A program made the translations under genes and the position numbers. Positions 2,773 to 53,583 of a stretch of DNA of 53,583 nucleotides are shown here, in pieces. The notes under the pieces were generated by a model. That model saw only the letters and a program-made list of their open reading frames with translations. It ran no database searches and was not told the origin of the DNA. This stretch comes from Psammoneis japonica (lineage: Eukaryota): assembly GCA_008632985.1 (NCBI GenBank), contig QPGO01000326.1, positions 1-53,583 on the forward strand, given 5' to 3'. How positions within the stretch are numbered: the stretch's first letter is position 1; each line of letters opens with the position of its first letter.

Positions 2773-2863
2773 GGCCCAATGTCACACGGAGTCCCACCTA
2801 GGGCTGGAACGCGTCTGCTCGCAATGAAAAGACTACGTAGCTAGAGTTGGTTTAAGAAACAAA

Positions 2864-16000: not shown

Positions 16001-16072
16001 TTTGACACAAATGACAACGGCAAATGAGCCATGAGAACAGCTGCTGCTCTTGCTGCTCCAACACACAGCTGC

Positions 16073-16074
<2 letters not shown>

Positions 16075-16123
<49 letters not shown>

Positions 16124-16143
16124 AAGAGAGAGAGAGAGAGAGA
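16075..16143. repeat. (GA)n microsatellite
   Basis: Nearly pure GA run. Confidence 0.97.
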
Positions 16144-18344: not shown

Positions 18345-18375
<31 letters not shown>

Positions 18376-18501
18376 CAACAACACAACAACATCCACAAAA
18401 TGGCAGCAGCAACAGTCAACCTCAACCACAGTGGTGCCCATTCGCACACGGATGACATCCGCGTGTTTGCATGCACAGCAGGTCAGAGCTGTCCAAGGTG
18501 A
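17566..18501 (+). pseudogene. FAR1/MULE-like (WRKY-GCM1 zinc-finger) domain pseudogene with polyQ
   Basis: ORFs 17488-17865 and 17878-18501 share a frame, split by TAA 17863-17865; GGFEIV...ILC...RKSTR...KCMCGW...HCNH resembles the FAR1 DNA-binding domain; CAG/CAA run near 18346-18382. Confidence 0.45.
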
Positions 18502-20888
18502 ACAGCATGCAGCACTCTCTCATTGAACAGAGCTGCAATCCACACAACATGAACAAAGCGTCATTTCCACTCGCAGCACAATGCTGCACCTCTGTGCAGG
18601 CCTGCTGCATCATGAATCTGTGACTCGAGCCTCTCTGCTGCACTCTGGCAAGAGCTCTGTAAAGTCGCATGCATTGTGCACACTCACAGTTGCAATTGGC
18701 ATTTGCGCTTCATCGTCCTCGGAGGCTTCGGTGAACTCACGTGAGAAATGTGGATTCCGACTGGCAGGGAATTCCAGACCTCAGGTCACCAATTGCAGAC
18801 CTCCCAAGCCGGGAGTGGTCACCAATGATCCCGACAACAGCAAGCAGCACCAAGAATCGCAAGCAATGTGCGCCATTGTTGGTTCACCTGAGCAGTTAGT
18901 TTCCATTGCTGTTGACATCACCTTTGTGCTTTCCATCACTTCACCCACATCCATGTGTCTGCAAACTGCTTGGCCCTCTTTTTACAAATTCCAAAGTGCT
19001 TGCTGAGCACTGCATCTTCCCCAGTTGTGAGCGGCCCAATTGTCTGCACTGGGCTGTTGCAAGAGATTCTTGATTCCCCACTTTGTCAAGAGCTTCTTTG
19101 TTCTCATGGCTTCCAACAATCCTGGGCCAAGTGTGTGCATTGTTCCAAACTGCTTTGGTGCTGGCCAGTGTTTTGTTGGTGGAGCAGCACAGGCAGTTGT
19201 GGAAGCCTTGATTGGCACACCCATGAGTTTTGTCACAAAGGTCTTGTGTCTGACTCAGCAAACATGATGACATGCAAGTGAGATTCCAGCACAGCCTGCA
19301 CTTTCCTTTGCGGAAGAGCTGGGAGAGATTGTGGGCTTGTTTTCTTCCAAAATTGCAGCTGCGCTCTCCCCACAGGCATTTGTGATCCATTTGCAACTCT
19401 TGGGTGGCTGACCAGCCCCCTCCTTTGTTGCCTCTGCACTCTCCTGTTGCCAGCAATGATGCAAAGAGAAATTGTCATTGCAAGCAAACACCAAAACTTG
19501 CACCAAAACAGTGAAGAACTCCACTGGGATCCTTCTTCTTGTTTGTTCTTGGGACACTTGCACAAAGGGACTTGTTTGTGAGCATGAGATGACTCACATT
19601 GATGCAGAGATGATGTTGTGAGCATGGCTCATTTGGCTGTCAAAACACTTTTGTGCACACATGCTCCTGCAATGATGGCTTGCATCTTTCCTGCCAGCAA
19701 CACACTCAAAAGAAAAGCAACGGCTTTCTGGGTCAGGCAGTGGAGGGGGAGAGCAAAACATGGCACACAGCTGCATCGTGGTTTTGAGCAAAGGAGGGAA
19801 GATGCTTGGGGACAATGAATCCTAGATCCCAAATGCCTGGTGTCTGAAAGTGGAAGGCCGGACTCCATTTCAGTGGGTGACTGAATTTTTTGATGGAAAG
19901 AAAGCTGGATTGCGGCGATCGCATCAAATCTGTCATTTGCAAAAATCTTGCACCCCTCTCTCCACAGGGCAGGGCACCAGTGCAAACATCAGTGCATTCA
20001 TGTGATGACAGGTGCTTCTCCTCAAAATCAGGTGTGGACCACAGTTTGTGTCATGATTGCAGCGCCGTTGCTGGGCTGGGTGTCATGGCACAACAAGGTG
20101 CGGGGAATGATGAGAGTGGCCACAATGATGAGCCCCCCCGGCATGTCGCACTTGCTGTCCAGAATGTGCAGTTCTTGTTGCATTTGGTTTGGAAGGAGGA
20201 AGGATGTGGGTCACATGACACCAATGTCAGTTGATCCAAAACATCTCTCCCAGGCCCTCCAATCTGCACAGAATTTGTTGATGGGTTGCCGCGGTGGCAT
20301 GCTGGGTCAACTCCATTTTTTTTGTCAGCCCTTCTCTGGTGGAGAATGCTGCCACCTGGGAAAGAACCTGTTGCTGGCATTGCTCCACAGGGAGCACAGT
20401 CCAGAGAGAGAGTTTTAGGCCGATCTGCAAACGACATTTTAAAGACATTGCACAGCGGCACCCCCAGCCCAGCGGCGCGCGAGGACTGTTGTGGCGGTCT
20501 CAGCTTCTCTGTCTCTCTGTGTGTTGCAAGAGAAAAATTGCGCCCTCTGCTGGTGGTGGTCAGAGAAGAAAAGGAGCACCGTTGACCTCTCTGCTGGGGC
20601 CCAGCTGCTCTAGAGAGTGAGAGCTGCTCTACTCTACTAGCAGCTGGCTGCTCTAGAGCAGTAGAGAGTGCCAGCAGATGCGTGCGGATGCGCCCAACTA
20701 AAAAATTGGAGGCGGATTCAGCCGTGCCATCTTACGCCCCTACGTCACGATCCACGATTGAATCTCCCCAAGAATATTTTGCAAAAAAAGGAAAAAAGTG
20801 GGTTCGCACAATCTATTTTGGCTTGACGCCTCCTTTTCGCTGTTCTCGACATACAAGTATTGCTTCTTCTCAACAGCATGGCAAGATA

Positions 20889-31609: not shown

Positions 31610-32323
31610 GCAGGATGGTACTTCGGGCTCATCTGAATTAGTCATCGTGCACGCATAAATCAGAGAAAGATGCTGCAAGGATGTTTATTTTGGGATATTG
31701 TTGGGGAAGGCTTTTTAGAACCAGCAACGAAAGAGATATAGAAATACGTTGAAATTAGAATACTACTAGATGTTCACAGAGCCCATGATGGACTGCTACT
31801 AATTACAGATGACTCACTGTAGCACGGTTTTACCTGGCTCATTCTTTCGTGGCACCATCAGCCTTTGAACAGGCTAAGGCAATAGCGTGACATGGAAGAA
31901 CCGCTTCTACAGAATCACGAGAGTACTCTATTGGGGCGCACGCGTATTGTGATATATATTTTTCATCTTGTTTCCTGGAAGATTCGCCAAATGCTGTTCC
32001 GCGAACAACCCGAATAGAGTGAAACTGGGGTTATCTGCGTCAAATTGCTCAGTTGAGACCATGTGCGGTAGACGTCGAAGCCACATCCTAGAGAAAAAGA
32101 AAAAAAAAACACCGAACGAGACAGAGGTAGGCAAACTTAAAGTCACACAACTTTCATGTGATATGTAGACTGTTAGCGCACTCTAGAGCATGGCAAACTA
32201 GACCTCTACTGTAGCTACTAGCTAGCTCGTAGTACGCCGCCCAGCGATCCACCCCAGCTGTGCCACTGCCAACCAAACCGGATCCTAACCTGTATCATAA
32301 ACAACGCCAACGTCTACGCCACA

Positions 32324-33530
32324 TTGACAATGCGCAGACGACTGCACATCGGTGCTGCACAAGGGTCACGGTGCTCCCGTCTCAACGCACTGCGAACAAT
32401 CATGACAGCCATCGACGACATCTTTCGACCACTCAATGCCAATGACACGGCACAACGTCAAGAACCCATCTCAGTGAAAAAATTGCGCAAAGGAGATGCA
32501 ACCTGGTCGACACAAAAGGAAGTGCTGGGGTGGCTGATCGACACCCACTCCATGACACTGCGCCTCACTGACTGTCGCCTTGCAAGACTCTGCACTGCTC
32601 TCCACCAGGACTCCCCCCACCAACATAATTGAGCTGCCACTTCTGACTGCCACCGCCTGCTTGGTGAGCTCTGCTCACTGTCAACAGCAATCCCCAGATC
32701 ACGTGGTCTGTTTTCCAAACTCCAGAAACTGCTGCGCCAAACACCACACCAGACTCCTGCACATGTCTCACACTGACCTCCATGCAATTATGGACAACTT
32801 TAGAGACCTCTGCACCACCCTTGAACTCCATCCAGCACACCTCCAAGAGCTGGTCCCGCTTGAACCCACCGGTGCATGGATGCCACGATGCTGCCGGTCA
32901 GGGTGCAGGAGGAGTGCCACTGCCCACAAATGCGCTGCCACCGTGCCACGGGCAACTAAACTCAAGTTTGGCCCTTCTGCACGGGCCCGCCGTCAAACCT
33001 CCTCCTGCCCAACAGTGTGGCAAATGCCCTTCCCAAAGGACATGACATCTGACCTTGCAACCTGCGACAACCCCACCGGAACTACAACCAACACCAATCT
33101 CAAGCTCGCAGGTGGCGTTGTGCAAACACATGCAGCCTCCAACTGTTTCGACATGCAAGAACGCACTCACCTCCAATGCACTGACAGTCCAGGGACCATG
33201 TTCTGGCAACAAAAAGGATCCTTGACTGCTGCCAAAGTTCGTGCTTCTCCACTTCATTGCCAAGCCCACCACCAACATTTTCATCAGCAACTCACGCTAC
33301 ATGACTGCCTGCCGGGCCCCCTCAACACTGCCGGCAACAATGCCTCACGCTTGCAATCCCTTGCTGACACCAAAATTTTGCGCCACTTTCACTCTTGTTG
33401 TCCCCAGAACAAACCTTGGTGCTTGTGGACCCCGCCACCCGCACTGTGTTCCTTCGTGACCTCCGTGCTGCACAAGAAGCAGTGCCCATGCAGTTGCCTC
33501 TTCACGAGCCTCCGCCGCCAACACCACACT
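32324..33530 (+). pseudogene. RT C-terminus/RNase H remnant of the YR retroelement
   Basis: EPISVKKLRKGDATWSTQKEVLGWLIDT; GCHDAAGQGAG, TNTNLKLAG, HDCLPGPLNTAGNNASR; frameshifted. Confidence 0.8.
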
Positions 33531-34520
33531 GTGGCCATCGATTGACTCCTTCGTAAAATCAACAATCCCGTCCTCCACCTCCAAGTCTGCCTCCACTGAT
33601 GCCGCATCGGCATCCTCGCACCACGTGGCCATCCCGTCCGTGGATGCACTGCTGAAATGCCTTGCTGTCTGTTGGCCAAACGTTTGCTGCAATGCGGTCC
33701 CCGGACCTGCACCTCACACCACAAGGGGGTTTTGATTTCTGACTCACCTGTCAAATCCATCATTGCAAGAAGCAAGATCCTCCGCCAGACAGAGTCAAGC
33801 CCATCCCGGTTGCCGTCCTGCATTGGGTCCTCTCCGCAGCCGCCCTTGGCCAACACCCGGGCACCCAAGTGATCACAGATGTGATTGCTCTAGCCTTTTT
33901 CTTCCTTTTGCGCCCTGGCAAATGCACTGCCATGCCTTCTGACACCACTCATTTCCAGATTGCCAATGTGCATCTCTCTGCTGGTGGTGCACATCTCAAC
34001 CTGTTTGAAGTGCCCACAGCACAGCCAATGGCCGCCACCTTCACCACCCTCACCTTCGCCGACCAAAAGAATGGTGTGCGCAGTGAAGTCACAGGTCTGG
34101 GCCTTTCTGGCCACCCCCAACTGTGCCCAGTTAAAGCAGCAACACATCGAGTGTTGCACTTGCGCGCCCACGGTGTGCTCCCGGACACCCCCCTCTCTGC
34201 ATGCTTTCATGATGGTGCATGGCACCAGGTCAGCCCAGTTGACATCACATCCATCCTCCACACTGTTGTCACTGCCCTTGGCCCCCAGAACCTTGGTTTT
34301 AACCCTTCTGATGTTTCCACACACTGCCTTTGTGCCGCCGGTGCCACAGGGGTTGCTGTGTGCCCAAGTGGACACTGACATCATCCGTCTCTTGGGACAC
34401 TGGCGCTCCGATGAAATGCTGCAATGCCTCCACCTCCAAGCAGAGCCCATCATGAGCAATTTCTCACAATGCATGCCAGCCGGTGGGAACTTTGTCCTTC
34501 ACCCCAATGACGATGTCCCA
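33530..34520 (+). pseudogene. Tyrosine recombinase remnant
   Basis: KQDPPPDRVKPIP, FFFLLRPGKCT, QKNG, CPVKA, IRLLGHWRSDEMLQCLHLQA; the catalytic Tyr position reads Cys. Confidence 0.85.
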
Positions 34521-34613
34521 CTTGCCCCCAACATGCCTCAAGCACCACAGCTCACCAGCCGGTCCCACCTCTCCCACCCAAAATTCACTTGTGCCTCCTT
34601 TGGAGGAGCTGGA

Positions 34614-35051
34614 GGCCCTTGCCATCCAGCCTGGGTTTTCTTGGGAGAGTGCAAGCCTGTGCCAGCAAAGGCCTCTCCACTCCCAGATTGGTTTGGCCCT
34701 GGTCTGGCCACTGAGTGTTGCTGCAGTGGACAAACAAGAAAAGCGGCAACAGCCACTGGCCTCAAGCAACACACCAAGCAAGATCCCCAATTCCGTTGAG
34801 CACACAAGCGACCCATGAGCTGCCTGTCCAATGAAGCTTGCTCATTCTTTTGAGACAACAACAGCAAGTCAAAGTGGGTGGCTTTTGACACTCCCACCTC
34901 TCCCGCCCTCTGGCCCTTGCCATCCAGCCTGGGTTTTCTTGGGAGAGTGCAAGCGCCTGCACCAGCAAAGCCCTCTCCACTCCTGGATTGGTTTGGTCCC
35001 AGTCCAGCTGCTGAACATTGCTGCAGTGGACAAATGAGAAAACACAGCAAC
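34614..35051 (+). repeat. Pair of about 140-bp direct repeats (34614-34750, 34912-35051) at the element 3' end
   Basis: Both start GGCCCTTGCCATCCAGCCTGGGTTTTCTTGGGAGAGTGCAAGC; mismatches are mostly TG/CA swaps. Confidence 0.9.
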
Positions 35052-35109
35052 TGGATCCCCCATGCTCCACATTGAGTTTGACGATGGTGGTGCCTGTGAC
35101 GTCAATCTA

Positions 35110-35552
35110 GAGTGCAACACACAGCCACTGACAAGAGCCAATGCATCACGGCAACGTGTTGCAGCCTTTAAATGTCACAAAGGGCATGACAAAAACAACC
35201 TTTTGTCTGCATGCACACTGCGTTGTGAATTCACAGCGGAGTGGTTCATCGCAACCATTGGGCAGGAGGCCAGGGGTTCGAAACCCTGAGTGGGAGTTGT
35301 CTGCAGCAACGTTGATCACTGTCGAACGCGCAAAACTCTGTGCAGTTCTGTGTGTTCCTTCGCACGCACCCACACTGTTCCGCCAAAACCGTGCAGTGTC
35401 AGCACACGTCAGCAAAGAGCCGCATGGACGCGTGACACATGGGGAGGAGTGCAACACACAGCTGCTGACAAGAGCTGATGCATCACGGCGACGTGTTGCA
35501 GCCTTTAAATGTCACAAAGGGCGTGACAAAAACAACCTTTTGTCTGCATGCA
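35110..35552 (+). repeat. 106-bp direct repeat pair (35110-35215, 35447-35552)
   Basis: GAGTGCAACACACAG...TTTTGTCTGCATGCA twice; differences are 2 CA/TG and 2 CA/CG. Confidence 0.92.
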
Positions 35553-36047
35553 TGCTGCAAGAGGAACATGTCCAGGGAACCAATCTCTGTCATTTGCTGG
35601 ACAAGGGAAAAAACCGGATGCTGCCAGCAGCTCTGTTTGAAGATTGTGTCATCAAATGGCTCTGGAGAACTGGTTTGCACGCACACACACACACACGAGT
35701 TGAGCATTTTTTTGTCACCTTCTCCTCAGAGTTGACCTTGCATCTGACTCGCACAATGATTGACAACATTATAGAAGTTTCTAAAACATCGTGTGCACTC
35801 TGCTGTTTGCCAAGTCAATGCACCACGCATGTCATTTTGCAGTTTTGCAGGCACAAGTCTGGATTTCATGAGTGCATTTGCAAACAATGGGAGGCTGGTG
35901 TCCGTTGACACCGGCGCCCATTTGAAAGACAGGAAACAGGGGAAAAGCCTTTTCCAGCAGTGCACTTTGCTTGCAGCATCCTCGCCAATGTCACAGTGAC
36001 CAGAAGACTGATGCCACTCCCTGGGAATGAAACAACAGGACAGACCT

Positions 36048-36243
36048 TGACAGAATGCCGAAGGTCGACAATGACAGAGGCATGAAAGACTCCCCAAAGC
36101 ACCAGGACTGTGACAACACGAGTGCCAGCAGATGAGAAAGTGAGAAGCAGATCTCAGAGAGATCTGCTTGTCTGTCCAAATGGTCCAGCCATCATCCGCA
36201 TCCAGTCTGTCCATCGTGCGACATGTGGATGAGCAGGCTGACA
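36048..36243 (-). repeat. 3' LTR
   Basis: Matches 43052-43247 with 10 transition differences. Confidence 0.96.
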
Positions 36244-36253
36244 CCCTCCCCTG
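36244..36253 (-). promoter_or_regulatory. Polypurine tract
   Basis: CAGGGGAGGG on the minus strand immediately before the 3' LTR. Confidence 0.8.
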
Positions 36254-36416
36254 ATCTGCAATGTCTCAACACAGAAAACAGGACAGATCAAACCAAAGAA
36301 CAGGGATGACACAGGGAAACAGAGAGACCAGACACAGGACACAATGAGTGTCCATGCCCAATGCGCCATCAAACAAGGGGGCAATGCGCAGCAGGGAGGC
36401 CACCGTGGAAAAAATG

Positions 36417-39400
36417 TCAACAGTGGTGTCCCATCATGCGTCGAGCGCAGCGAGCGTGTGGCACCCAGCCAAGGGCCTTGGCAAGGTCATCGCTGGGGTT
36501 GATGATGCCAGGAACATGTCTTGTGACAATCTTGCCCGCTTCCTTCCATTTTTGGATCGCAAAAAACTGGATCTCAACATGACGGGATCGCTCAGTCGGG
36601 ATCGAGTGATTGATGATCTTGATCGCCGATTCGTTGTCAATGTGCGACGGGGTTGCCTTCGTCTGAGGGAAGCCTGGATCATGTGGGATGTGATGAAGGC
36701 AAAGGACATGCTTGGCAGCAGTGCCAGCAGCACAGAATTCAGCTTCCGTAGAACTCGCAGCAGTCACCGATTGGGTCTTGCATCAAAAGGATGTGGCAGC
36801 ACCGGCTAACATGCAAGCATGGCCGGTCGCAGAGCGACGGTTGCGGAGGTCATTGCCATGTGCAGCATCCAAAAAAGCAAACAAGTTGATGATCATGTTC
36901 CCGGGAAAGGGAACGAAGGTGGTGTCGGGTCTGGAGTGAGACGTTCGAAGGGGCAGGCGGGCAGTCTTGAGTCTCGGGCAGGCTTCTTGCAATTCAATTC
37001 CCAATGCTTGGTGCGTCGAAGGTGCTTGCATGCGCCCTTGAGTGCATCACAGTGAACCAAAGCAGGACAGGCAGAGAACTTGGAGAGAGCAGTGACAGCA
37101 CAGCCAACATCCAATCAACAGACAACGTGCGCACGCAACAATTCACCAAGGAGAGTGCGGCACCCAAAGCCAGCAGCCTGTTGCAACTCCGCATGTTCCG
37201 AGGTTCCTTCAGCTGGACCAACAGCAGTGTGCAGTTCACAAACAGAGTCAACTGGAATTGGCGCAGCCTTGCAGTCATTGACGAGTTCTTCGTCTGTCGG
37301 TGTCGACCATCCATGCGAAGTACAAACCCGATCAACATGGCTGTGAACAGCAATGCCAATAGAATCATCATGTTGATGGATGTCCACACCGTTGAATTCT
37401 TCAATCATGCCAAGATGCTTGAAAGGCAGAGAAGCTTCCGATTCCAATTGAAGAGCTTCACCAATCTTGTCATGTGTCTTGATCGCAAGGGACTCTTCAG
37501 GACACGCAAGGGAGAAGTCATCAACCTGGCAGAGGAGTGAGATCTTGTGTCCCTCAAAAGCAGCGGAACAGATGCATTTGTCATGAGCAGCATTGCAAAA
37601 AAGTAGATTCACATCAGACAAAATGCTGTTGATGTGCGTCTCCCAGAGCACGCCGGCTTCTGGGTGTCCTTGAAGTGCATGTTGCATTGGAAGCACCATG
37701 GTCCTGTCCAAATCAATGCCAAACCGAGCCTTGCACCAAGTGGCATGTGCTTCATTGACAGCAACATGGACGGGGTGTGATGGTCGCGGGGAGTGTGCGT
37801 GTGCATCACGAGCGTCACCACCAAATGCAGGGTAGCTCACAGTCGCAGCAAGAGCAAAAAACATGCGTTGGATGGGTTGTTCCACACAAGAGGAGCAGGT
37901 CGAGTGAAGATGGTGGAGAATCGACGCAGCATGTGGGGATCCATCACAGCATTGTCGAGATCATCGCGTGCCATCATGCTTGAGATCACATTGCCAATGT
38001 GGACGAAGAACTGTGGCATCCTTTGGACGTTTAATGGTGCACCAAACATCCCCAACTCATGAAATTGGTCGAGTTGTTTGAATTCACCCGCATGCCATTC
38101 GGGCCAGGTGTCCAATTTCTTGAGACGATGGCGAGTGAAAGCACCTGACGCTTGTTCCTCCAGGGCAATCGCATGAGAAGAAATGGTGCAAATGTTGACC
38201 ACACCATTGTCGCAGTCGACATAAATTGGCGGAGGGACGTCATCATCGTCCACATCAGAAAAATCAATGTCAGGGTGACGGATGGCAGCAATGGCATGCA
38301 TGTCAGCAGTGGCAATTTCCGGGACATGCTCATCATCAGGGTCAGGAGTCGGTGCATGGATGTTGTGTTCCATCAGGGCACATTGGAGAGCCTGGGAGTC
38401 CAGTCGACGTTCCGGCATGAATTCGATTTCAAAGTGAGTCTTGCCTGAATCACAGACTTGTTGAAAACGTTTGACAGCCTCCTCTGCCGTGAAGACAGGA
38501 TGATCATCGATCACACGACATGCGCAACCTTGATCTTGTTGTGGGTGGCCTTCAAAGAAGAGAAAAGACGCACAGCAGGAGAACCACGCTTGACATCAGA
38601 GACAAATGCTCACCGACAGAGATCGTCCGTAGCCAAGGAAAGTCCAAACGTTGGATCAGCAAATGGTCCCTTCATCGCACGCTTGATGGTCTTGGCAAAA
38701 GGATTCCCATGAAAGTGAAACTCATCCATCGTGGATTCTTCAGTTTCGGCAGGCAAAGCCTTGCCATCTTGAGTGCGTTCCAAGTGAACCACATTCGGTG
38801 GAAGAGAGTCGTGGGGTGGATCATTCATGCCCTCATCACAACGGATGTGCTTGGCAAGCTTGATGCGCGATGTCTCAGTGTCATGCCAAAGGATGTTCTT
38901 GGCAGTGTCCGGAAGATGGCCTGAGAACATTCCCTTGCGAGAGACAGACCAAAATTTTGCTGGGCGGTGATTCGACGCACGCACCCACACTCGACAACCA
39001 AACGTACGAAAGTTCTTGAAATCACCCTTCCAACCAGCAGCGAGAGCAATCGGAGCAGCAGGTTGTCTGCGGGATGGCATGGCATTGTTGATTCAAATGA
39101 AATGATGAAAAGCACAGGGCCAGAATTTCATGGGCAAATCGGCGCCGATTGGCATCACCCGGATGGCATTGGCAACAGTCAAATGACTGCGTTCCACTGG
39201 GCCACTCTGATTTGAAGCATCTTTTCCCGCAGGACGAATTGTCATCCTCAAAGAGTTGCCGAACTTCTGGGTTTTGATGCAATTCACCCCCTTGATCCAC
39301 AAATGCATGTTCATCTGGACATTTTGGCGAGTGCTCTTCCAGAAAGTGGCGAAACCAATTCAGAGGGGTTGCCTTGGAGACCCGGGTCGCACCATGGAGA

Positions 39401-40800
39401 CGCTTCATTTTATGATCGTAGACAGTGATCCAACAAGTCTCGCCATTCAACCCAACATGGTCTTTGGTGCACTCCGAGTTCTTGGACCGCAGGCCAGAGA
39501 AAGAAAAATCAACCGTGAGGCCTTGGTGTGTTTGGGTGGCAGTAAGAGTGGTGTTCGGACCGGCAGGTTCCTTCGTCTGCTTTGCTCGCACACATGTGGG
39601 ACAAGTGTCGAGGGGAGAAGTTCCGTGGGCAAACTTGGGGACGCCATCAACATGTTCATGGGCATGACAAAGGCAGTGATCACTCGGATGACCAAGTTGC
39701 TGATGCCACAAAAGGCGTTCCATGTCGGCCTTGAGAGATTGCACAGGAACATTCTTCTCTGCATGCTTTTCAAAAGGGACATCCTGATGGACACGGGGGA
39801 TCAACTTGCGTTCAGCACGAAGAGCATCATGTTGGTGAGCATGATGCATTTCAATCATGTGCGCAGAAACCGCTTCACACTCATCGGCAAAGGAAGGGTC
39901 GCTGGTCTTGAGGTGCTCAACAGATGCATCCAATTCATTGGCAGATTCTGGGAGGATGAGAGGGTGAGCAGGACATTTGCCATTGAACAATTTCCCATGG
40001 ACAATGATGTCCTGATTCTTGCACAATCGATGTCGTGCAACAAACTTGCAGGTGCCGAGATCATGGAACTTGAGGATACAGTCAACATTGCAATCTGCAC
40101 GACAAGAACCATTTTGACGAAGGAGGAGTCGCCCATCGACCAACGTAGATTGGATCTGTGGGTGGCAGTGTGCACGGACCTCAACACAGCCGTCAGAGTT
40201 CTCTGCAGGGATGCGAAGACAGCCGAATCCAACTGGGACAGCTTGGTGGCCAAGGGCCAGATTGACGGCAAGGGGACAGGGATGGGATGGAGTGAAGTCT
40301 TGGTGTCGATGGAGGAGGTCACGGTTGCCTGTGCACGCAATGTCAGCACCAGCATCCAACTGAGCACAACGTTCATTCGGAGCAAAATTTACCCCATTGA
40401 CAGAACAAGTGGAGCGCAGCAGTTCCGGCTCAGGTGAGTGACTCGCTTGGCATGGATCGATCGGAGCAACACAGACAGAATTGACGGCAGCAAAACCGTC
40501 TTCAACAGCCATGTCATCACAGGTGAGATCAACACATTCCTCAAAATCCGGTGTTTCTGGGTCTTCCCTCCCCTGTTCCAAAGGATCCGGAGCATGAGCA
40601 GCATTGACGGTGGCTTCTTGAGGAGCAGGATCATCATCGGGTGACGTGCTGGCATCAAATGATGTCTTCGTGGAGGTGGAAGGGGTGGCATCCACATCAA
40701 TCTGTGAGGAAAGAGGCATTTCAGCGGCAGATGACGAGACGGTTAGTCCCTCTTTCAAGGTCATCCCGCTGACATCAGTCTTGTCTCGGTGAGGAGACAA
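36417..40800 (-). pseudogene. Copia pol (protease, integrase, RT, RNase H)
   Basis: AQLDAGAD; LWHQQLGHP..CPTC; DQGGEL, GPVERSH, FWPCAF, RTFGCRVWV; LQGHPEAG, QVDDF; SSTEAEF, IDNESA, RSRHVEI, NPSDDLAK; frameshifts and stops present. Confidence 0.93.
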
Positions 40801-42790
40801 CGGGCAGCATCGGAGATCCGAAACCAGCTGCGATGGCCCGATTGAAAATCCGAGGGTGGAGTGCTAGATGGAGGTGGATTTTCAGGATTGTCATGATGGG
40901 GTGGGAGTGACCCTTGGGGTCCTTGGAACTCAGAAGCATGCACAGCTGCTTCCCGTTTTAAGAATTGACAAAAATGGATGTGGAATCCCTTGATGTGCGG
41001 GTTGTTCTTCAGGACTGGACAGTCATCAAATGAATGCTCTCCAGAGCAGACAAGACATGGTTTCTTGGAGGCTTCATGCAGAGCAACTTTCAGTTTGCAG
41101 ACTGAAGCCGAACATGCATGGTGAAGAATGCGATCTTCATCCGTAGATGGGATCTCGAGTTCATGCAATTCGTCGCAAAGAGTGTCAAAGGCATCCGGAG
41201 GTGGAGACTCTGTGCCAGGATCTTCAGTGGCAGAGGCATCAACTGGTTCTTGAAGGGGCATCTCAGGGATCTGGAGAGAATTGACATTGACAGGTGTGCA
41301 TCGCGCAGCAGCATCTGCTCGATTCCATGTGCGGCATGGGTTGGATTCATCGCACGAGTGGCAAGGGATGGACTGTCCGGTTGGCGGAGGAAATCAGAGA
41401 GAGTCTCGACAATCTGTGCATCCGTGTGCTTCTTCTGCACAGCTGGAGACTTCCGTTCATCTCTGGCAGCACGTGATGAGAACTTGGAGCACTTGGCATT
41501 CTTGACAAAGACAGTCATCTCTCGTGGATCGTTCAATGTAGAGTCCGCATCAAACATGTGGGCACGTAGCTGGAGGAAATCATTGAAGATCATGTGGCAG
41601 TCCGTCAATGATTGATTGCCTTGGACAGGATGGGAATCAACAAGTCCAGCAGCATCGTGATCAAAGGCAGGATGATTCTCACAGAAAATCTGCTTGAGGG
41701 CCTTGCATCCGTTGCTGCAGCATGATGCAACAATCCGATGACATTTGCCATTCTTGGGAAACATGTCCGACTTGGAAAGGATTTTGTGGAGAGAGCTCTG
41801 AGCTTCCTTGCAGTGGACGTACATGCGTTGTGGCAAGTCATCATCCTTGCTGTTTCCGATCTCAAAACCCTTCTCACCACTGTGGTCCTTGGCAAAACAC
41901 CACAGGGGATGCATGTGGCAACCTGAATCAAAGGCATGACGTTGGAAATTTTGGCACCATGCTCGTGTCCCAGGGGAAGAGTCGTCACGACATGCAGGAG
42001 GTTCCCTGAACAACATTTTCTGGTCAGGAGTCGAGCGCATGATGAAAAGGGCACCATCATCAAGGATGACACGATCGGATGCATCAACACAGTGACGGAA
42101 TCCATGGTCGTGAGGGACGAGAGAGCTCTGAAGAGTGACTTTTCCATCTTCTTTGCGGTCGTAGCATGCACAAACATCTGGAGGAAGTGTGTTTGGATTG
42201 AAGAGATGTTTTGACGTTGCGGAGGATGCAGTGCTTCCAGATGTCTCAGCAGAAGCTGTAGAAGGCAGAGCATGACTCGATGCGCATGCATTGAGTGCAT
42301 TGACCAAGTCAGTCACAGTCAATGCAGCAGGTCCTGCAGTTTTCTGAGAAGAAGACGGAGGCTGCTGTTTCTTCTGGCAGGGTGCAAGAGAGAACTTGTT
42401 CCAATTGCGACAGTTCCATGTCATGTCCGGATCAACACATGTGTGTTGGGTGGAGATGAGAACAATCAAAGATTGCTCATTGTTCAGGAGATTTGTCTTG
42501 ATCAGCTTTGACAAGACTGGAGTCGTCAAACAGACTGGACGAATTCTTTGAGAGTCAACAAGTCGGAATGGGGCTTGATCCACAATCGTCTTGATTGATT
42601 GCATGTCTGCAGGATCAGCGGTGTAGGGTGGAAACGCTTCGTGGATGAAGCAATCACGAAGTGTGTCCGTGAAATCTTTCTTGGGTTGCGCATGCTCTGG
42701 GTCGTCAAAAAACGGGTCCAGATCAGTTGTGGAGTCCGCATGAATCGCGTTCAGGCAATTGTGCAGATGTGGTGTCGTTGCATGTGCCTT
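40761..42790 (-). pseudogene. Copia gag
   Basis: Long ORF 41090-42604 upstream of pol; zinc knuckle CLVCSGEHSFDDC near 41020-41060. Confidence 0.75.
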
Positions 42791-43040
42791 GATTCACAGC
42801 AGATCTCTGCAATGGACGACAGAGCGGGCTTTGTGGTGTCGGAAGACGCCATGGTTTTAGTGGGTGGAGCCATTTTTGGTCATGCACGCGTGGAAATCTG
42901 GTGTGTTTCTACGACCGTGAAAAATGCCGGGAAAGTGAGATAAAAAGTTGTCTGATCAGACAATGAGGCTCGCTCGATCGGCTCACAAAACAAATGGGTC
43001 GAAGCAGAAAGCTTGGCGCAGAGGTCTGTGGCACAGCGCA

Positions 43041-43051
43041 TGGCCACAACC
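43041..43051 (-). promoter_or_regulatory. Primer-binding site (mutated)
   Basis: GGTTGTGGCCA directly after the 5' LTR; resembles the GGTTATG.. half-tRNAiMet PBS of Copia with TA->TG. Confidence 0.6.
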
Positions 43052-43247
43052 TGACAGAATGCCGAAGGTCGACAATGACAGAGGTGTGAAAGACTCCCCA
43101 AAGTGCCAGGACTGTGACAACATGAGTGCCAGCAGATGAGAAAGTGAGAAGCAGATCTCAGAGAGATCTGCTCATCTGTCCAAATGGTCCAGCCATCATC
43201 CGCATCCAGTCTGTCCATCACACGACATGTGGATGAGCAGGCTGACA
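43052..43247 (-). repeat. 5' LTR
   Basis: Pairs with 36048-36243. Confidence 0.96.
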
Positions 43248-43509
43248 GACCTTGAAATGTCTTGGAATGCTTTTGCGGGTGAGGAAGATTGACTCCAACT
43301 CTCTAGCTGGCTTTGTTCATGGTGTGTCTTTGTTGCCATCTGGGCAGCACACAAGCCACAAGTGGGCTGTGCGAGGGGTGCAACAACAACAACAACAACA
43401 ACAGGTGAAAGAGCGCACAAGGCGGCGACCACACGGTTTGCCATCTTTGAGCTAAAATGCATGCACTGCTGCATGTGATGCATGCTGTGGGGAGGAATGT
43501 CAACACTGT

Positions 43510-44790
43510 TCAAAACCTCACAGCTTGGCCAGTCAGTGGCATTTCTTCCAGCAGCACTTGTCTCCAAGCATGCTCCTCAGGGCAGGCACCCAATTCCACA
43601 TCACATTCAAGTGCCAATGCTGCGGCTGTTTGCACAAGTGTGTGCCGCCACGACACCCCAACTCATTTCTCCCTCTTGATTTTTAAACAATTCCTCTTGA
43701 AACTCTGCAACCTGTTGTGAGTGTGAGGCATTGTTGTTGTTGTTGTTGTTTGCTGATGCTTTTTCAAGAATGGCAGATGTGGCTGGGAGCGCTTGCTTTT
43801 TCTTTTGCCCGTCCTCATTTGCTTTTGTCTTGGTGTTTCAGCGATTCTTTGACAAGTGAAGGAGCATTTGAGGTTGGAGTTGAAACTCAAATTTACAATG
43901 CACTCCACAATGGGGACAGGATGGAATGATGGTTGGATGACTGTGGATGCAATCCAAAGCAGACCCATGCCATTGTTGCTGTCACAGTCATTTTTGTTTT
44001 CATCCGGCCACTGACAGCACCACAAACACTGCTCCTGTGCACATTCTCGGGATGTCCAATTCAAGCACAAAATTCCAATGTGATGGGATCCTTGGCTCCA
44101 ACACTGGTGCTTCCCGTCATTTGGTTTAAATCATCTTGATTCAAATCAAAATCATCATTGTCAAATGGAGTTTTGCGCTCCTTTTCATTTTCAAATGACG
44201 GTGGTTCCTCTTCCACAACCAATTCATGCTTGGCAAAGATGGATGGCAAAAATGCATCATCTGCAGTTGATTGAAACACGTGTTTCTTGTGTTTGACTTG
44301 ATGTTTGCATCCACAAAACGAAACTCCCTGCAGGGGACATTTTCCCTTGCCACTTTGTCCACATGCTTGACAAAGCGAAAGGTTCCAACAGGACGGTGTG
44401 TGATTTTTCCAATCATCACTCAACAACAAGTCATCCTGGCTGCAGGGACAGAACTCATTTTCTTGCGGCAGTTGTGTTTGCAACACTTGAATCATTGCAT
44501 GGCACCCAAAGATGCGCAGGGTCCGATGAAAGGCATGAAGAGCCGGAGTGCACAATTGACAAAGAAATTTCAAAGGACCATTGCACACAGGACAAGTTGC
44601 CCAATTGATGCTTGGAAGGTCCAGTGGATTCAACCACAATGGTTTGATGCCCATGTGACTGCTGTCCCAATGGTCCACCAATTGGGCTCTCTTGCGAAAC
44701 TCTGTCATTGTCATGAGTTGGCTCTGCAAACCCCAGCTGAGCGCCTTGAAAACAACTGTCATCAGCAGCACTGCTGTCATCAATGGACAT
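43510..44790 (-). pseudogene. PDCD2: PDCD2 (programmed cell death 2/TSR4-like) pseudogene
   Basis: QLGFAEP; KPLWLNP..CPVC..PLKFLCQL..AFHRTLRIFGC; QLPQEN; MYND-like CQACG..FCGCKHQ; CPHCG..KFEFQLQPQML; WGVVAAHTC; EEHAWRQ; frameshifts and stops; 3' end approximate. Confidence 0.85.
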
Positions 44791-45174
44791 TTTTCTCCAC
44801 GTGTCTTCCCTCTGTTGTTGTCATTCTTGTTGCTGTTGTACCTGCCAAAAAGTTGTGAAAGAACAAAAGCTTAAAGCTGTGATGAGATCGCGACTTTTTT
44901 GTGAGGTGATTTGACACAAACTCATAACCCAACAGACACGCCCTCACAGACAGACAACAGAAGAATTCGACAATACAATGTCATACAAATTGTTTCATCA
45001 AAATGACAGGTCATTACGTCTCGCGGTAACAAAGTCATTGTATGATATGACTTTTACAAATTAATTATGCCCTGGAACCATCTTCTAGAACCTGCAGACA
45101 TTCCACGACCACTTTGTTGAACAAATCATCACAAAATCGCCCTCACAATTTGTGCAGTCGACGCCTGAATCACC

Positions 45175-47640: not shown

Positions 47641-50445
47641 GTGACTCAACCAGGACAAGCCGATTTGTGCGCTTCTCCGTTATCGAGTTGAAACTAGTAA
47701 AGAAGAAAGAACATGTGCTTGCGAGAAGACCGGGATTGGGTGTTGGGTGAACGGTCTGTAACTTTATAGTTGATTGTTTCGCACTTGTGGCGCACATTTC
47801 TCTGTAGAAAAGATCGCTGACCAAGGCGTTTTTGTATGATAGTTCGTCTTTGTCTTCATGCTAAAGGGCAACACAACGTTTCGAAACAAAAACAAACATC
47901 ACAACCATTCGTACGAGTTGACTATCGTACCGTACAAAAACCCATGACTCTAGAGAGAGCTTCTCTCTCTAGTAGCTACTACTCTAGTGCAAGACAGGGG
48001 ACACAATCTGTCGGAGGGAAGTTTCAGTCGTGATAGTCCAGTGGCGTGTTGAATCCCACGGAGAGCGAATCATCTTACGCGGAAGTTGCCCCCCAAAGAG
48101 GACGAGTCCCAGGGAGAACAATTCTGGGACAGTTGGAAGAACAGCCCTCACAGAAGAGTTCAGAATTTAGAGAAACAGCATGGTGATGCACTTTGTTGTC
48201 ATTAAGAGGCTGCAGGAGTGCCTGTCAAACAAGACAGATGAGGTGCAGTGTGTCAGCCCATTGAGGTCTCGAGCCCACAAAATTTCACGTCTCATCTCCT
48301 CGCACCTTTCTCCACTTGCTGCTTTCATTCTTTGCATGCTTTCTGTTTGGTGTTCTGTTGCTGTTGACTCTGGGTTGACCCTGCCTTGCTCCTGCTTGCA
48401 ACAATGTGTGGTGCCAGCCATGCAGCTCTGCCAATCGCCACCCTGCTGCTGCTGCTCCTCACTTGCTTTCACACTTTGTCTTGACACCCAACTGGTTGGC
48501 TGTTTTGTTTTAGAAGCACATTGTGTGCTTTGCCCACACTCTGGATGTGATGACACACCACATCAGGAGCCTGTCATTGTGTCGACCATTGTGTGTGCAC
48601 AAAAAGCTTGCACTCATTGACGCAAAAGAAGGCTGCACAAAAGCAGCAAAGAGTGCCTGGTGGCTCAACACACAAAGAGCCACACAGCACAGTGCAAGAG
48701 CTCTGTGTGCCACAGCTTTGTTCCACCTGCAAAAAGATGATGCACCCATGAGAAATTTCTGGATTTGCTTGTCTGACAAAACAAAAAGGAGCCAATTTCC
48801 TGTGGTGAGCTGCCAAACCCTTGTTTTCACAGATGTGCCAGTGTCTCTCAAGAAGACATGAGCAAGTGTGCTGATTTCATCATGGCTGTCCCACAACAAG
48901 GGTTGCAAGGATGACAGTTTCTGTGATCTTTGTTTGAACCAAGTGACTTGCTGCTTTCCCAACTTGGTGTTGATTTGGCTCCTGGATGCATTTCCAAAGA
49001 TGTGCGCGCCTTTGCTGCAGCAAAGCAGAGCATCAGCAAAGCTTGTTGGACACAAAGACACTGGCAGCATGATGCACAACAACACTGCAGTGCTCAGGTT
49101 GTGCAAGCTCCTCAAGCAACTGAATGTGGGGGGCACACAGCACTTTTGTTCCAGTGGCTTGCTTTTTCCAGAACAGCACATTGTGAATGACACAGCTCTG
49201 CCAAGTCAGCCTGCATTTGATGCACCATGATGTGCACAGAATGTCCCTCAACCATCAGCTGCTGAGGGTCTCTTTTGTCCATGAGACTGCAAGGCAGTGC
49301 ACCACTGCTGTGTCAGACTGAAGCACTTTTTGTGCTGAAAAAAAAAAAACAAAACATGGCCAAGATGTGCCACACTGCAAGACTTGTGAAGATGGCAGTG
49401 TTGTCAATGTGGGAACACTGTCCCAGAGGAGCCATGTGTTCAGATTGGGCCATTGATGCCCCCTTGCGTTTCATGCAGATGCACCCATGTGTTCTGCCTG
49501 CCAAGCCTTCTTGGTGGGTGTGTGCTGCTGTGGCTGCAGCAGCCCCTTTGCCAGAGCCACAGCACATGTTGTGTGTGTGCGGGAATTGCCCTCATTGACA
49601 ATCTGATGCATCGAACAATGTCTGCTCCACATGCACAGCAACAAGAGACAGCAACAAAACATGTGGCAGTTTGCAGACACAGTCATTGATGAGACAAACT
49701 GATTGAGTGGCAGACTCATGCGCACGCAAAAGCATGTCTTTCTTGTGTGATTTTAGATTGTTGCTTCAATTGAATGCAAAAAACAAGTTTGAGAGGAAAC
49801 TGCTGGTGGCACAGCATCCAATGGTGCATTCCTCCGAACCAGGTGAGGCACAGACAGACAAAAAAGCATGAATTTAGAATCCACTCATTTAGCTTCAAAC
49901 GATTGCTCAAATTTGGAGATTTTACTGTGATGATGAGTGGCCTCTTGCAAGCTGGCCGGCCTGCATTCATTTTAGTTTTTCCAAATTTTGAGTCAAGACA
50001 CCACACGTTTTTGCCATGCTTTGATTTTTTGTGTCTCCCACGGACAGAGACGATGTTGCATTCATCAAGATGGTGTCTTGGTGGCACCACAGCAAAATTG
50101 TCAAACATTGCAAACTCTTCACCCATCAATGAATCCACTGTCACATTTGTTGATGATCATGCTGAACAACAGGGCCATGGCAGCTGCCAAAGAAACTCAG
50201 CCAATTTTTTGTGGTCATTGTGATGCACTGGCATGGTTTCATGAAGTCATTTTGCATCACAATTCTGTGTCTGATTCAGGTGTTTCATTTCTTTCTACTT
50301 TGCTTGGGTCACCTGAGATTTCTCATGAAAAGCTTTTGAGAACTTGTGGTTTGTTGAAGGTGAAATTCCTTTGCATGATTGGAGACTTGGGCGCCATTCC
50401 AAGGTTTGAAAAAAGAGCAAAAAAGCGTGATGTGCCCCACTGCAA

Positions 50446-50727
50446 ATAGAAAAGGAGCAACCTTTGTTCATGCATTGGAGGCAGAGGACAATGTTGGCAA
50501 TGCAGCGGATGTGCTGATCCCAAGCAAACCTGCTTTTGCACTTGTTGCTTTTTTGCATCAACCAGCATCAAGTGGCTCAAGACATTGAAGCATCCAAGGC
50601 TGTCACAACAAACTTTCAAAGTCAAGTGATGGGTGTCAGCCACATCATTTGCATGATGTTGCCATGGGAAAACCCAGTCTGCCTTTTTCAAGTGTGGCTC
50701 ATCTTTGAAGTTGCATCTGCAATTTAA
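50446..50727 (+). pseudogene. Remnant of a conserved domain often found N-terminal to TPR/kinesin-light-chain-like repeats
   Basis: FCINQHQV...HIICMMLPWENPVCLFQVWLIFE resembles the recalled CINQH...PWxxPxYLxRxWCxFE motif. Confidence 0.45.
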
Positions 50728-51283
50728 AAGGGGAAAATGATGGTTGGAGCAAAAGATGTCAAGACACCATTGGTGCTCCTCTCTGCACAGGCAGCTCAGC
50801 TCTTTTTCTGTTGCTTTCTTCTTGACATGTGATTTTGACCAGTTGCTCCTCGACAAATGATTTTGACTGGTTGCATCTTTTGGACAATGATGAAAATTCA
50901 GCTCTGTTTGTGCCAACACCACTTCTCCTCTGTGACTGAATCATCCTGGATGGAAGTGACTGGTGCAGCAGCAGTGGACATGCATTGTGAGCAACAAACA
51001 ACTCTGGACCAAGCAATGCTTGATTTGACAAACAATGGGACAGCTTTGCATTCATTTTGTTGCTTGTTGCTTGTGCAGCACTCAGTCTCTGTCTGCTCTC
51101 TGGCTGGAGCAGCCACTGGAACAGAGCAGTTGTTGTTTCTCTGCCAGTGGTGTGTCCACACAGATGCCATGACACCACACATGCCATTTCTGTCTGTGCC
51201 AGAACTTGTGCTGATTCTGCAGGATGGCATGTGAGATGCCATGTTTGTTTGTGACAGTCACTTGGAACTTGTGCCACTCCAAT

Positions 51284-51355
51284 GGGTCTGTGCCCAAAAG
51301 GCAAAAGTTCAAGTTGCAAGGGTCTGTGCCTAAAAGGCAAAAGTTCAAGTTGCAA
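51284..51355 (+). repeat. 36-bp tandem duplication
   Basis: GGGTCTGTGCC(C/T)AAAAGGCAAAAGTTCAAGTTGCAA twice. Confidence 0.95.
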
Positions 51356-52766
51356 GATGCAAGGCGCCATCATCATGGGCACACAACATTGCACCACACT
51401 CTGCCCCAACCTCTTGCCAGCACACTTTCTGTCAACATTTGTCTTGAGGAAGAAGAGATGTTGTGATGGATGATCCATTTGTTCCTCTGACAAATTCTGC
51501 AAAAGAGTTGGATGCAGGAAGGTTGTTGTGTCTGCAACAATGATGATGATGGGCTTGAATTGAATGGTGCGGTGTTGAGTGGCAAGTCTGTTGCTCTGTG
51601 GGAGGCACATGATGTTGACCCTGTTGACTGTGATGCACCACTAACTTCATTTTCTGACAGGCACAAACAATGCAGAAATGATGTGGAACATGGCTCACTC
51701 TGATGCTGGAGAGCTTTTGGAGCAACACTCCTTCCCAATGCTCCTTGTCAACATGATTTTGGCAGACAATCATGAGAATTTTCACATTGGCTTGTGAGGA
51801 CTGTGAAGCTTTTTGTGGAAAGACAATCATCCAACAAATGCCCAGCTGTTTGTCTGTGGCTCCACCACCCAAGGATCATGAGAGAGCAATGACAGTCACA
51901 CCAGATTGAGCTGCAGCTTGCTGTGCAAACTTGGCACCATGCAATGGAAATGGAAGTGGCACATGCTGTGTGTCTGCAGCAGCTGGTCTTTTCTTGATGG
52001 TGTTGATGATGCATTTTTTTCTTTCACCAACAGAAAATGGCAATGGCTGACCCTGTTTCCTGAAAAGTGCCGCTGCACAGCAGCAGGTGTGTTGATGCAT
52101 GCACATGTGTTTCTTGTCTTTTCTTCCATTTCAGCTTGCCTTTGCAATTCTCCTGTGGCTCACTTGTTTTCAGCTCTTGGAGAAACTCTGCCACTGGAGT
52201 CAGTTTGGTCACACATGCTGGATGCCTGCTGTTTTGTCATGATGGTCATGCTGGCCTTTGCAATTCTTCTCTTGTGGCTTGCTTGTTCCCATCTCTTGGA
52301 GAAGCTGGAGAGATTCAGTTTGGTTGCAAACGCTGGGAGGCTGCATTGTCTTTCAGCAACAACACTCTGCCGAGTGCCAGTTCACCCACCGAGCTGACCA
52401 ATCCAAGCAAAGCCACAGGACAGCATGCTCGGGCAAGTCTGCATGCAAGACAATGTTGGTTCTTTTTGATGAAATTCAATGGGCGGGTGATGGAAGTGAG
52501 TCTGGCAACACCATGCAGCAAATGCCAAGTTGCGTGGTCACACTGAATCAGACAATGTCATGCAGCAAATGCTGAGCTGCACAGTCACACCATGTGTTGT
52601 GCATCAATCTCAAGTTTGTTGGGAAATTGGCCCTTCTTGCATCCAGGTTGGCAGCAGATGCATGGATCACTGCTTGTCCTGTGCTCGTCAATGCAGGTCA
52701 ATGGATCCTTGGTCCCAATCCTTTTGACACAGCGGCGTGCCACACTCCACACACAGCACCACATTG

Positions 52767-53583
52767 TCATGGTGCATTTGCTGCACTTCCAACACATCCA
52801 ACAATTTTGTTGATGTGGTTGACCAACATTGTGCCTGCTCTAAAGTTGCTTCTCTGTTGGAGGTCTTGCAGCATCACCAGCATCATCAGTTGTTTGTTTG
52901 AGTGGCTCCACTGCCAGCGTGGATGGTCAACTTTGAGTGAGACAGCCCCGGTCAGGCCTGGTGCTTGAGGCCTTTGCAGAGCACATCTGAGAATTTTCTT
53001 GCCTTCATCTTTTGCCCATGAGTGGTTTGGTTGAGGTGCCAGCAGAGTTGGTGAAGATCCACTGCTGACTCTCCCACAGTGGTGATGAGGAGCTGGAACC
53101 AGCAGCAACAGCAAGTTGGTCATGATTGCTCCAAACCAAGAATGTCCTGTGTCTTTGCTTGTTGTGTTCATTGACAATTGGGAGACATTTGTGCAGAAAC
53201 TCACAGAGTTTTGGGCACAGGAGATCTTCAATGCCATTTCTCTGCACTCGTTCTCAAAGTTTGACACACAAGGGGTGTCAGATGGAGTTGCAAGCCCACA
53301 TGTTGGTGTAAAATGTGCAATGTTCGTTTCACTCCATGTGCAACCAAGTGCTGTCAAATTCACTCCCACAATTTCCGTTGCAAGCACAACCCATTTTCCA
53401 GCCAAATGATTGGGGTGTTGTGCCATCATGATTCATTGTGCAGCTGCCTTTGGGAAAAAAGCTGCACTGTTCTTTACAACGAAAGTCGAGTGAACATTGA
53501 GAAATTTCCGGACTTCCATGCAACTCATGATGCTGCCGAACCATGCATTACCTCCAACCCAGCCACCTTCCTTCACACCAGCT
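52767..53583 (-). mobile_element. piggyBac-like (PGBD/IS4-fold) transposase remnant, running off the window end
   Basis: VGGNAWFGS, HSTFVVK..FFPK, AGKWVV, TCG, EFLHKCLPIVNEHNKQR match recalled diatom piggyBac-like motifs (GDAWFGS; FLYEYLPLIDEHNKQRQ); left edge approximate. Confidence 0.72.

Follow-up and report, generated by a model that had tools for sequence, protein, structure and literature searches.

Opposed CA/TG differences between the long terminal repeats of a diatom Ty1/copia retrotransposon, and the probable hypermutation of TpA in its repeat block

The contig QPGO01000326.1 of the diatom Psammoneis japonica (assembly GCA_008632985.1), whose 53,583 nucleotides are the window analysed here, carries a degenerate Ty1/copia retrotransposon bounded by two long terminal repeats (LTRs) that differ from each other by transitions only, most of them paired, with CA in the one LTR facing TG in the other. 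Hallmarks of Ty1/copia elements are present, namely LTRs with TG...CA ends, a 5-bp target-site duplication and a polypurine tract, and the order of domains, gag_pre-integrs, SH3_retrovirus and then RVT_2 (Pfam), is the Ty1/copia arrangement. The element is on the minus strand and runs from right to left, since at 36244 a purine run adjoins the LTR, and the frames too are on that strand (Table 1). It is a dead copy, as its frames are broken by frameshifts and stops; two of the three Pfam scores are slightly below their cutoffs, as expected for a mutated copy. A search of the protein database with its reverse transcriptase (RT) found relatives with E values down to 1e-86, the best matches being 51–56% identical at near lengths (47 matches) and 48–53% identical at shorter lengths (5 matches), and gave no copy of the element from the same genome. 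Self-comparison revealed no second copy of the element or of its LTR elsewhere in the window, and a scan with a 27-base LTR pattern had no match in genome contigs and none in viral contigs. A (CAA)n microsatellite lies just to the right of the element (43372–43411).

The two LTRs (36048–36243 and 43052–43247, 196 bp each) align without gaps and differ at 10 positions, each time by a transition; there are no indels or transversions between them and no TA in either. Eight of the ten differences are adjacent and make up four CA/TG doublets, the other two are single differences at CpG, and four CpGs are intact in both LTRs. Simulated placement of 10 transitions, random over the LTR, never gave four or more doublets in 200,000 trials, and with placement confined to CA, TG and CG positions the frequency was 4.5e-5. 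An earlier note on this DNA had listed ten differences, all transitions without indels or transversions, comprising four CA/TG doublets and two single CG losses (each doublet and CG loss being placed by the first base of its dinucleotide), with no TA in either LTR and four CpGs surviving in both, and gap-free alignment and counting bear out this description. That note also held that the changes occurred after integration and not during reverse transcription. Because the LTRs of a retrotransposon are copied from one template, their differences did arise after integration, and as they did, RNA editing cannot explain them. Inside each LTR there is an inverted repeat around AGATCTC...GAGATCT (36142–36172 and 43146–43172, detected as an opposite-strand self-match), and the doublet at 36169–70 sits at its edge.

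The scarcity of TA extends well beyond the LTRs. The element interior has 29 TAs in 6808 bp (observed/expected ratio, o/e, 0.07), and the whole window is a mosaic in which four TA-poor blocks alternate sharply with TA-normal gene blocks, ordinary cellular genes being confined to the latter. The TA-poor blocks, 27,111 bp in all, have 83 TAs (o/e 0.05), with CA at o/e 1.75, TG at 1.71 and CpG at 0.42, and the stretches between them, 26,472 bp, have 851 TAs (o/e 0.49), with CA at 1.15, TG at 1.20 and CpG at 0.95. The edges are abrupt (dense TA ends at 13104, for example, with 13264 and 13593 as the following TA positions). Plus-strand stop triplets in the window number 200 for TAA, 234 for TAG and 1108 for TGA, TAA and TAG being almost gone from the TA-poor blocks. 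These blocks carry many long open frames without domain matches, a trap for gene callers; in a Pfam search with 26 open frames from the TA-poor blocks other than that of the element, no match reached the cutoff.

The direction of change can be read from RT. The frame at 37115–37960 (minus strand) was aligned with 17 of the 47 relatives found. At the 14 columns where tyrosine is the majority residue, this copy has histidine seven times, cysteine four times, and arginine, phenylalanine and tyrosine once each, which makes 11 of 14 His or Cys, while the other conserved columns are retained at 29 of 31 (His 8/8, Cys 4/5, Phe 8/9, Trp 3/3 and Gln 6/6; Fisher P = 2e-8). Five of the seven majority-Arg columns are retained and two are His or Cys, from CGN codons. 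Tyrosine accounts for 0.4% of the frame here and for 4.4% in relatives. Since conserved tyrosines have given way to histidine (7) and cysteine (4) with the other residues retained, the alignment indicates that TA became CA or TG on both strands, and to a much greater extent than CpG was lost. An RT without nearly all of its conserved tyrosines can hardly have served as the active parent of the element. The cysteine before QVDD was considered as a lost catalytic tyrosine and rejected, as relatives have arginine there and the change is one of CpG to TpG.

The same polarity is seen in sister families from metagenomes, where a scan of contigs for related elements gave 80 loci, two families being recognisable by DNA similarity (10 loci around L014 and 11 around L008). 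The TA o/e of the 80 loci ranges from 0.03 to 0.82, and is below 0.4 in 10 of them. For polarity, each copy's dinucleotide was set against the most frequent one among the other copies, at columns with at least four other copies and 60% agreement. Sites with a TA majority now read CA or TG at 26 of 32 in L060, 78 of 92 in L030 and 93 of 149 in L008, and in the little-mutated L034 and L007 at 4 of 92 and 2 of 76. The corresponding figures for CG-majority sites in L060, L030 and L008 are 20/87, 18/107 and 31/162, a CpG loss of 17–23%, while TA conversion is nearly complete in some copies. Five copia copies from microbial-mat and other metagenomes (L060, L052, L030, L055 and L046) have a TA o/e of 0.03–0.24 beside sister copies of the same family at 0.6–0.8; the same TA-erasing process is therefore at work in uncultured organisms too. 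The depletion in L008 begins at the start of the element (28–37 TA per kb in the flank, 12–20 in the element). The only LTR pairs found at the metagenome loci are one in L061, of 458 bp with 8 ordinary differences, and a partial one of 94 bp in L074, and there is no hypermutated replicate among them.

Where two mutated sister copies differ by CA/TG, the dinucleotide in the other copies gives a calibration of how such doublets come about, rather than a proof of the origin of those in the LTRs, because the pairs have copies in common and are of greater age than an LTR pair. In L030/L008, the most TA-depleted pair, other copies have TA at 22 of 37 doublets, CA at 9, TG at 3 and a mixture at 3, with CG or anything else at none. 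The 21 doublets of L060/L078 fall on TA 7, CG 0, CA 3, TG 5, mixed 5 and other 1, the 23 of L060/L029 on TA 7, CG 7, CA 1, TG 3 and mixed 5, and the 23 of L078/L029 on TA 8, CG 2, CA 3, TG 2 and mixed 8 (other being 0 in the last two pairs). Pooled over the four pairs, 9 of 104 doublets are on CG and 29 of 104 are where other copies mostly have CA or TG. At TA-majority sites lost in both L030 and L008, both copies have CA at 10, both have TG at 27, and the two are opposite at 22, so the strand outcome is close to that of independent choice.

Other duplicated stretches within the window serve as an internal control, and CA/TG doublets prove not to be peculiar to the LTRs. Two further duplicates in the TA-poor block of the element share the spectrum: 35447–35558 and 35110–35221 differ by five events, three of them doublets and two CpG singles, and 7 of the 10 events that separate 34912–35042 from 34614–34742 are doublets. 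In another TA-poor block, a pair that has diverged further (52250/52134) has doublets at 2 of 19 events, and four duplicated pairs in TA-normal blocks have them at 1/22, 1/70, 0/14 and 2/49.

Not all TAs are equally susceptible. Conversion varies, per strand opportunity, with the base 3′ of the adenine: in the four sister copies with the most mutation it is 13/74 for A, 20/145 for G, 76/164 for C and 59/117 for T (pyrimidine versus purine, P = 2e-15). The TAs surviving in the TA-poor blocks of the window are enriched for Y-TA-R (38/83 versus 144/848, P = 1.5e-8) and depleted of R-TA-Y (6/83 versus 238/848, P = 1e-5), and in the sister families as in these blocks surviving TAs pile up in TTAA, CTAA/TTAG and CTAG. 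Both sets of counts point to T-A-pyrimidine as the preferred target, or equivalently to purine-T-A if it is the thymine that is attacked. Three of the four LTR doublets are in R-xx-Y context, which offers the preferred T-A-Y on both strands.

The LTR counts (four CpGs intact, two single differences and four doublets) are poorly fitted by a homogeneous model in which only CpG decays (G = 6.2, P = 0.013), singles as few as two being reached in 1.6% of simulations; a test pooled over three duplicates (P = 1e-4) was set aside as it mixes pairs of different age. The misfit agrees with the argument of the earlier note that CpG loss is too incomplete for four opposite double hits. With a probability of CpG loss of ~0.2, from the four intact and two single sites, ~0.1–0.4 CpG-derived doublets are expected, and with an ancestral TA o/e of 0.5–0.8 and ~85–93% loss per copy, ~2–3.5 TA-derived ones; four are observed. 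On these models most of the four doublet sites were probably TA ancestrally. No change is seen at the other 186 LTR positions (for the pair, a 95% upper bound of 3/186), and ~85–91% of the interior TAs are gone, so that TA loss, assuming that it followed insertion, is at least ~240–300 times faster than background; the note's expectation of a process fast relative to background is, on that assumption, indirectly supported.

The probable course of events is the insertion of a Ty1/copia element followed by regional hypermutation of TpA to TpG or CpA in the repeat block. A retrotransposon would have inserted on the minus strand with a 5-bp duplication and two identical LTRs, and the whole repeat-rich block would then have been subject to the change, an A:T-to-G:C transition on either strand of the palindromic TA for which adenine deamination in DNA would be the simplest route. 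The process would now be near completion, no TA being left in either LTR and 29 in the 6.8-kb interior. If the LTRs were struck independently, with strand choice near random, about half of the ancestral TAs would now differ between the LTRs, as CA in one and TG in the other; the four doublets would be these oppositely converted TAs, and the other half would be invisible, both LTRs reading alike. A second and slower process, CpG to TpG or CpA as for methylated repeats, would yield the two single differences. CpG decay is indeed also active, as seen from the CpG o/e of TA-poor and gene blocks, the two LTR singles and at least five losses private to this copy. In two stretches of the TA-poor blocks, 13501–16500 and 48001–53583, CpG is almost all lost too (9 CG in 15001–16500, and 8–17 per 1.5 kb from 48001) and CA and TG each reach 150–207 per 1.5 kb; they resemble repeats of greater age, with both processes carried through to completion.

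Information on other copies comes from a sequencing run that contains 0.50 of the window's sampled words and may itself be the source of the window, 5416 contigs of which aligned to the window (1074 at 99% identity or more, 1163 at 95–99%, 1836 at 90–95% and 1343 below 90%). Word depth is 2000–6000 on the element and ~100 on the flanks, which marks a high-copy family with an estimated ~40–65 copy equivalents of the element, and flank depths in the TA-poor block of the element are 2–6 times the single-copy level. One stretch of the left flank (35171–35604) is an extremely abundant repeat, with a summed word depth of ~97,000 compared with ~100 in neighbouring flanks, and the duplicates 35110–35221 and 35447–35558 lie at it. 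Variation among the contigs is mostly by transition (A>G at 454 places, G>A at 515, C>T at 406 and T>C at 355, each kind of transversion being at 36–74). Among the places listed where no contig has the window's letter, at least five are CpG-to-TpG/CpA changes, and are private to this copy.

The chief alternative is that the doublet sites were methylated CpGs, 5-methylcytosine having been deaminated on the top strand in one LTR, to give TG, and on the bottom strand in the other, to give CA. Its ingredients exist, as the CG/TG and CG/CA singles show CpG decay after insertion, CpG is depleted in the TA-poor blocks relative to gene blocks, and the private changes of this copy are of the same kind. 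The 9 sister doublets on CG, including 7 of the 23 in L060/L029, show that CpG decay can yield doublets, and the cluster at 36215–20 can be read as a CGCGCG that decayed differently in both LTRs and in a third copy. This third LTR copy, on a contig that joins 43224 to 36223, has CA-TG-TG where the 36048–36243 LTR has CG-TG-CG and the 43052–43247 LTR has CA-CA-CG, a state that fits either ancestry. However, the homogeneous model is at odds with the LTR counts and expects well under one doublet, the most TA-depleted sister pair has no doublet on CG among 37, and the LTR would have had to be almost without TA at insertion, or else all its TAs would have to have been converted alike in both copies. 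A CpG origin for the four sites is accordingly considered unlikely. A two-step path would have begun with CA (or TG) at the sites on insertion, one LTR then passing through a transient TA or CG that the fast TA or CpG process turned into the opposite dinucleotide. It has precedents in the element itself: at 37538–39 and 38864–65 all other contigs (8 and 18, respectively) have CA and the window has TG, so double changes from a family state other than TA do occur, though rarely, and the 29 sister doublets where other copies mostly have CA or TG may be of this type. Its first step, though, would be an ordinary background transition, of which the LTR pair has none at its other 186 positions, and at least two such cases in 6.8 kb scale to ~0.1 expected in two LTRs (a lower bound); this path is judged highly improbable. 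Just as improbable is a mix-up, whether by assembly or polishing, by gene conversion, or by recombination joining LTRs of different elements. The high copy number of the family, the presence of only half of the sampled words in the best run, and the few letters and gaps by which flank contigs differ from the window leave some room for it, but the 5-bp duplication is intact on both sides, as for a single insertion, contigs span both LTR-flank junctions, and the two other duplicates in the same block have the same spectrum (3/5 and 7/10 doublets). Gene conversion would merely shift the question to the donor copies. A basecalling artefact at modified TpA is conceivable for the LTR interior, but the Tyr to His/Cys pattern is found in independent metagenome assemblies also, and short-read contigs match the flanks.

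Fast and near-complete TpA erasure remains the best-supported account of most or all of the four doublets, though several of the observations just given count against it, namely the double changes from CA, the L060/L029 doublets on CG and the third LTR copy, whose joint suggests that a further copy has the state of the 43052–43247 LTR at the last cluster, and others can be added. Three doublets of the 34912/34614 duplicate are in C-xx-G context, a better match to CCGG than to the resistant CTAG, and over the 14 doublets of three duplicates the enrichment of R-xx-Y is not significant (6/14 versus 17/80, P = 0.10). We infer the TA ancestry of the four LTR sites from models and sister families, and not from other LTR copies. 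Hypermutated copies might also be mobilised in trans, in which case LTRs could be TA-free at insertion. The proposal of the earlier note, that all four doublets represent ancestral TA converted independently in each LTR, is consequently kept in qualified form: the RT tyrosines, the sister families and the misfit of the CpG-only model favour it, but one of the four sites could have a different, non-TA origin, because CpG decay is active, 9 of 104 sister doublets are on CpG and two private CA-to-TG changes are known.

Table 1. Coordinates in the window of the TA-poor blocks, the parts of the element and the differences between its LTRs
Feature	Position	Strand	Remarks
TA-poor block 1	1..1897		start of window
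TA-poor block 2	13105..20415		also CpG-poor; without recognisable protein domain
TA-poor block 3	32316..44838		with element and repeat-derived flanks; edges are jumps in TA density
TA-poor block 4	48204..53583		also CpG-poor; reaches window end
Target-site duplication GACCT, left copy	36043..36047		identical 5 bases directly flanking both LTRs
3′ LTR	36048..36243	-	TG...CA ends, no TA, 6 CpG
Doublet	36081-82/43085-86		CA vs TG; LTR positions 34-35
Doublet	36100-01/43104-05		CA vs TG; LTR positions 53-54
Single difference	36119/43123		CG vs TG
Doublet	36169-70/43173-74		TG vs CA; LTR positions 122-123
Single difference	36216/43220		CG vs CA; within CpG beginning at 36215
Doublet	36217-18/43221-22		TG vs CA; LTR positions 170-171
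Polypurine tract	36244..36252	-	AGGGGAGGG on minus strand; adjoins 3′ LTR; sets element orientation
Internal region	36244..43051	-	degenerate gag-protease-integrase-RT-RNase H frames; frameshifts and stops
Reverse transcriptase (Pfam RVT_2)	37316..37723	-	30.1 bits, just under cutoff of 31.6; Tyr codons to His/Cys
Retroviral polymerase SH3-like domain (SH3_retrovirus)	38829..39035	-	33.4 bits, cutoff 27
GAG-pre-integrase domain (gag_pre-integrs)	39577..39729	-	28.2 bits, cutoff 28.4; upstream of RT
5′ LTR	43052..43247	-	no TA, 4 CpG
Target-site duplication GACCT, right copy	43248..43252		

The genes of the TA-normal stretches have long exons and include those for a leucine-rich repeat (LRR) protein, an AIR-carboxylase/LarB-like protein, a 2OG-Fe(II) oxygenase, NAD-binding proteins and a peroxiredoxin. 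Among the 120 matches listed for the LarB/AIR-carboxylase-like protein, the named relatives are diatoms only (Nitzschia, Phaeodactylum, Seminavis, Thalassiosira, Ditylum, Odontella, Attheya and Pseudo-nitzschia), at 57–67% identity. At 3181–5595 (plus strand) there are two long in-frame open frames, of 490 and 314 amino acids, split by one stop at 4651–4653; the second is full of leucine-rich repeats, and the two probably belong to a single LRR gene that either has a short intron or lately acquired a stop.

A process of this type has already been described. In mutation-accumulation lines of the chlorarachniophyte Bigelowiella natans, 231 of 302 mutations were in two integrated viral regions, and 230 of these 231 were A-to-G or T-to-C, all at TpA, at ~6e-7 per site per generation according to the main text of the report (Mettrop et al., bioRxiv 10.64898/2026.01.13.699255). 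The same text describes TpA-poor clusters rich in CpA and TpG, with low-TpA coding sequences enriched in reverse-transcriptase and transposase domains, proposes an ADAT2-like adenine deaminase, and cites in its Discussion that ADAR favours U before the edited A (bioRxiv 10.64898/2026.01.13.699255). The words diatom, LTR, retrotransposon, context, flanking and trinucleotide do not occur in that main text, though flanking bases may be given in its supplements. Our literature search found this one report overall, of 2026, and none of TpA-erasing hypermutation in diatoms or on LTR elements. The present case shares with it, as far as that main text goes, TpA as the only target of the process, TpG and CpA as products, the coupling of TpA depletion to CpA and TpG enrichment, confinement to regions of foreign origin and, probably, a rate far above background; the changes here, too, are A:T-to-G:C at TpA, and TpA depletion with a rise of CpA and TpG is confined to repeat blocks. 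It differs in several respects. The host is a diatom (a stramenopile), the process strikes LTR retrotransposons and every one of the window's repeat blocks, TA is nearly completely removed (o/e 0.05, in comparison with 0.45 for the nucleocytoplasmic large DNA virus region of B. natans), loss of CpG accompanies that of TA, and a T-A-pyrimidine preference is visible. The rate in B. natans, ~1000 times background, is that of de novo mutations in mutation-accumulation lines, whereas the bound of at least ~240–300 times given here is an indirect one, from the unchanged LTR sites and the loss of TA. There was no ADAT2-like deaminase among the open reading frames of the window that were scanned. New here are the diatom genome, the retrotransposon family and the visible target preference.

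Resemblances to better-known systems are partial. Repeat-induced point mutation in fungi (RIP) is likewise a regional, transition-only hypermutation that ruins repeats or mobile DNA, its mark being a sharply bordered dinucleotide signature, but its direction is opposite: it makes C:G-to-T:A changes, mostly at CpA, and thereby raises TpA (PMC2621366, PMC7296669, as far as consulted), whereas here TpA is destroyed and CpA and TpG are raised. As a candidate it was rejected, since TpA is nearly absent from the repeats, CpA and TpG are enriched in them and the polarity is from TA to CA or TG. Diatoms methylate their transposable elements, and the CpG decay that goes with methylation has its counterparts here in the two LTR singles and the CpG o/e of the TA-poor blocks, but it can neither remove TA nor turn Tyr codons into His or Cys codons. 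Editing by APOBEC3 or ADAR also leaves deaminase-type clusters of transitions in retroelements; those enzymes act no later than integration and on a single strand, and so leave the same change in both LTRs, unlike here, where the LTRs differ and both strands are hit. ADAR-type RNA editing fixed by retrotransposition was ruled out, as the LTRs differ and both TA-to-CA and TA-to-TG changes are on the sense strand.

It appears rather likely, on balance, that diatoms have a TpA-directed DNA-editing defence like that of the chlorarachniophyte, one that erases nearly every TpA from retrotransposons and other repeats too quickly for ordinary substitution, favours T-A-pyrimidine and is directed at the same blocks that lose CpG. 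In that event it would be a widespread genome defence of the stramenopile, alveolate and rhizarian (SAR) lineages, opposite in direction to fungal RIP, with LTR pairs as its built-in clock. Regions from which TA has been erased yield long false open reading frames because the stops TAA and TAG are gone, and the erasure inflates LTR-based estimates of age and hides transposable-element proteins from domain searches. Confirmation would add retrotransposons and a second major lineage to the range of the process; with LTR pairs there would then be a simple means both of showing that it acts after integration and of timing it, and the apparent preference for T-A-pyrimidine would be a constraint that any candidate enzyme must explain.

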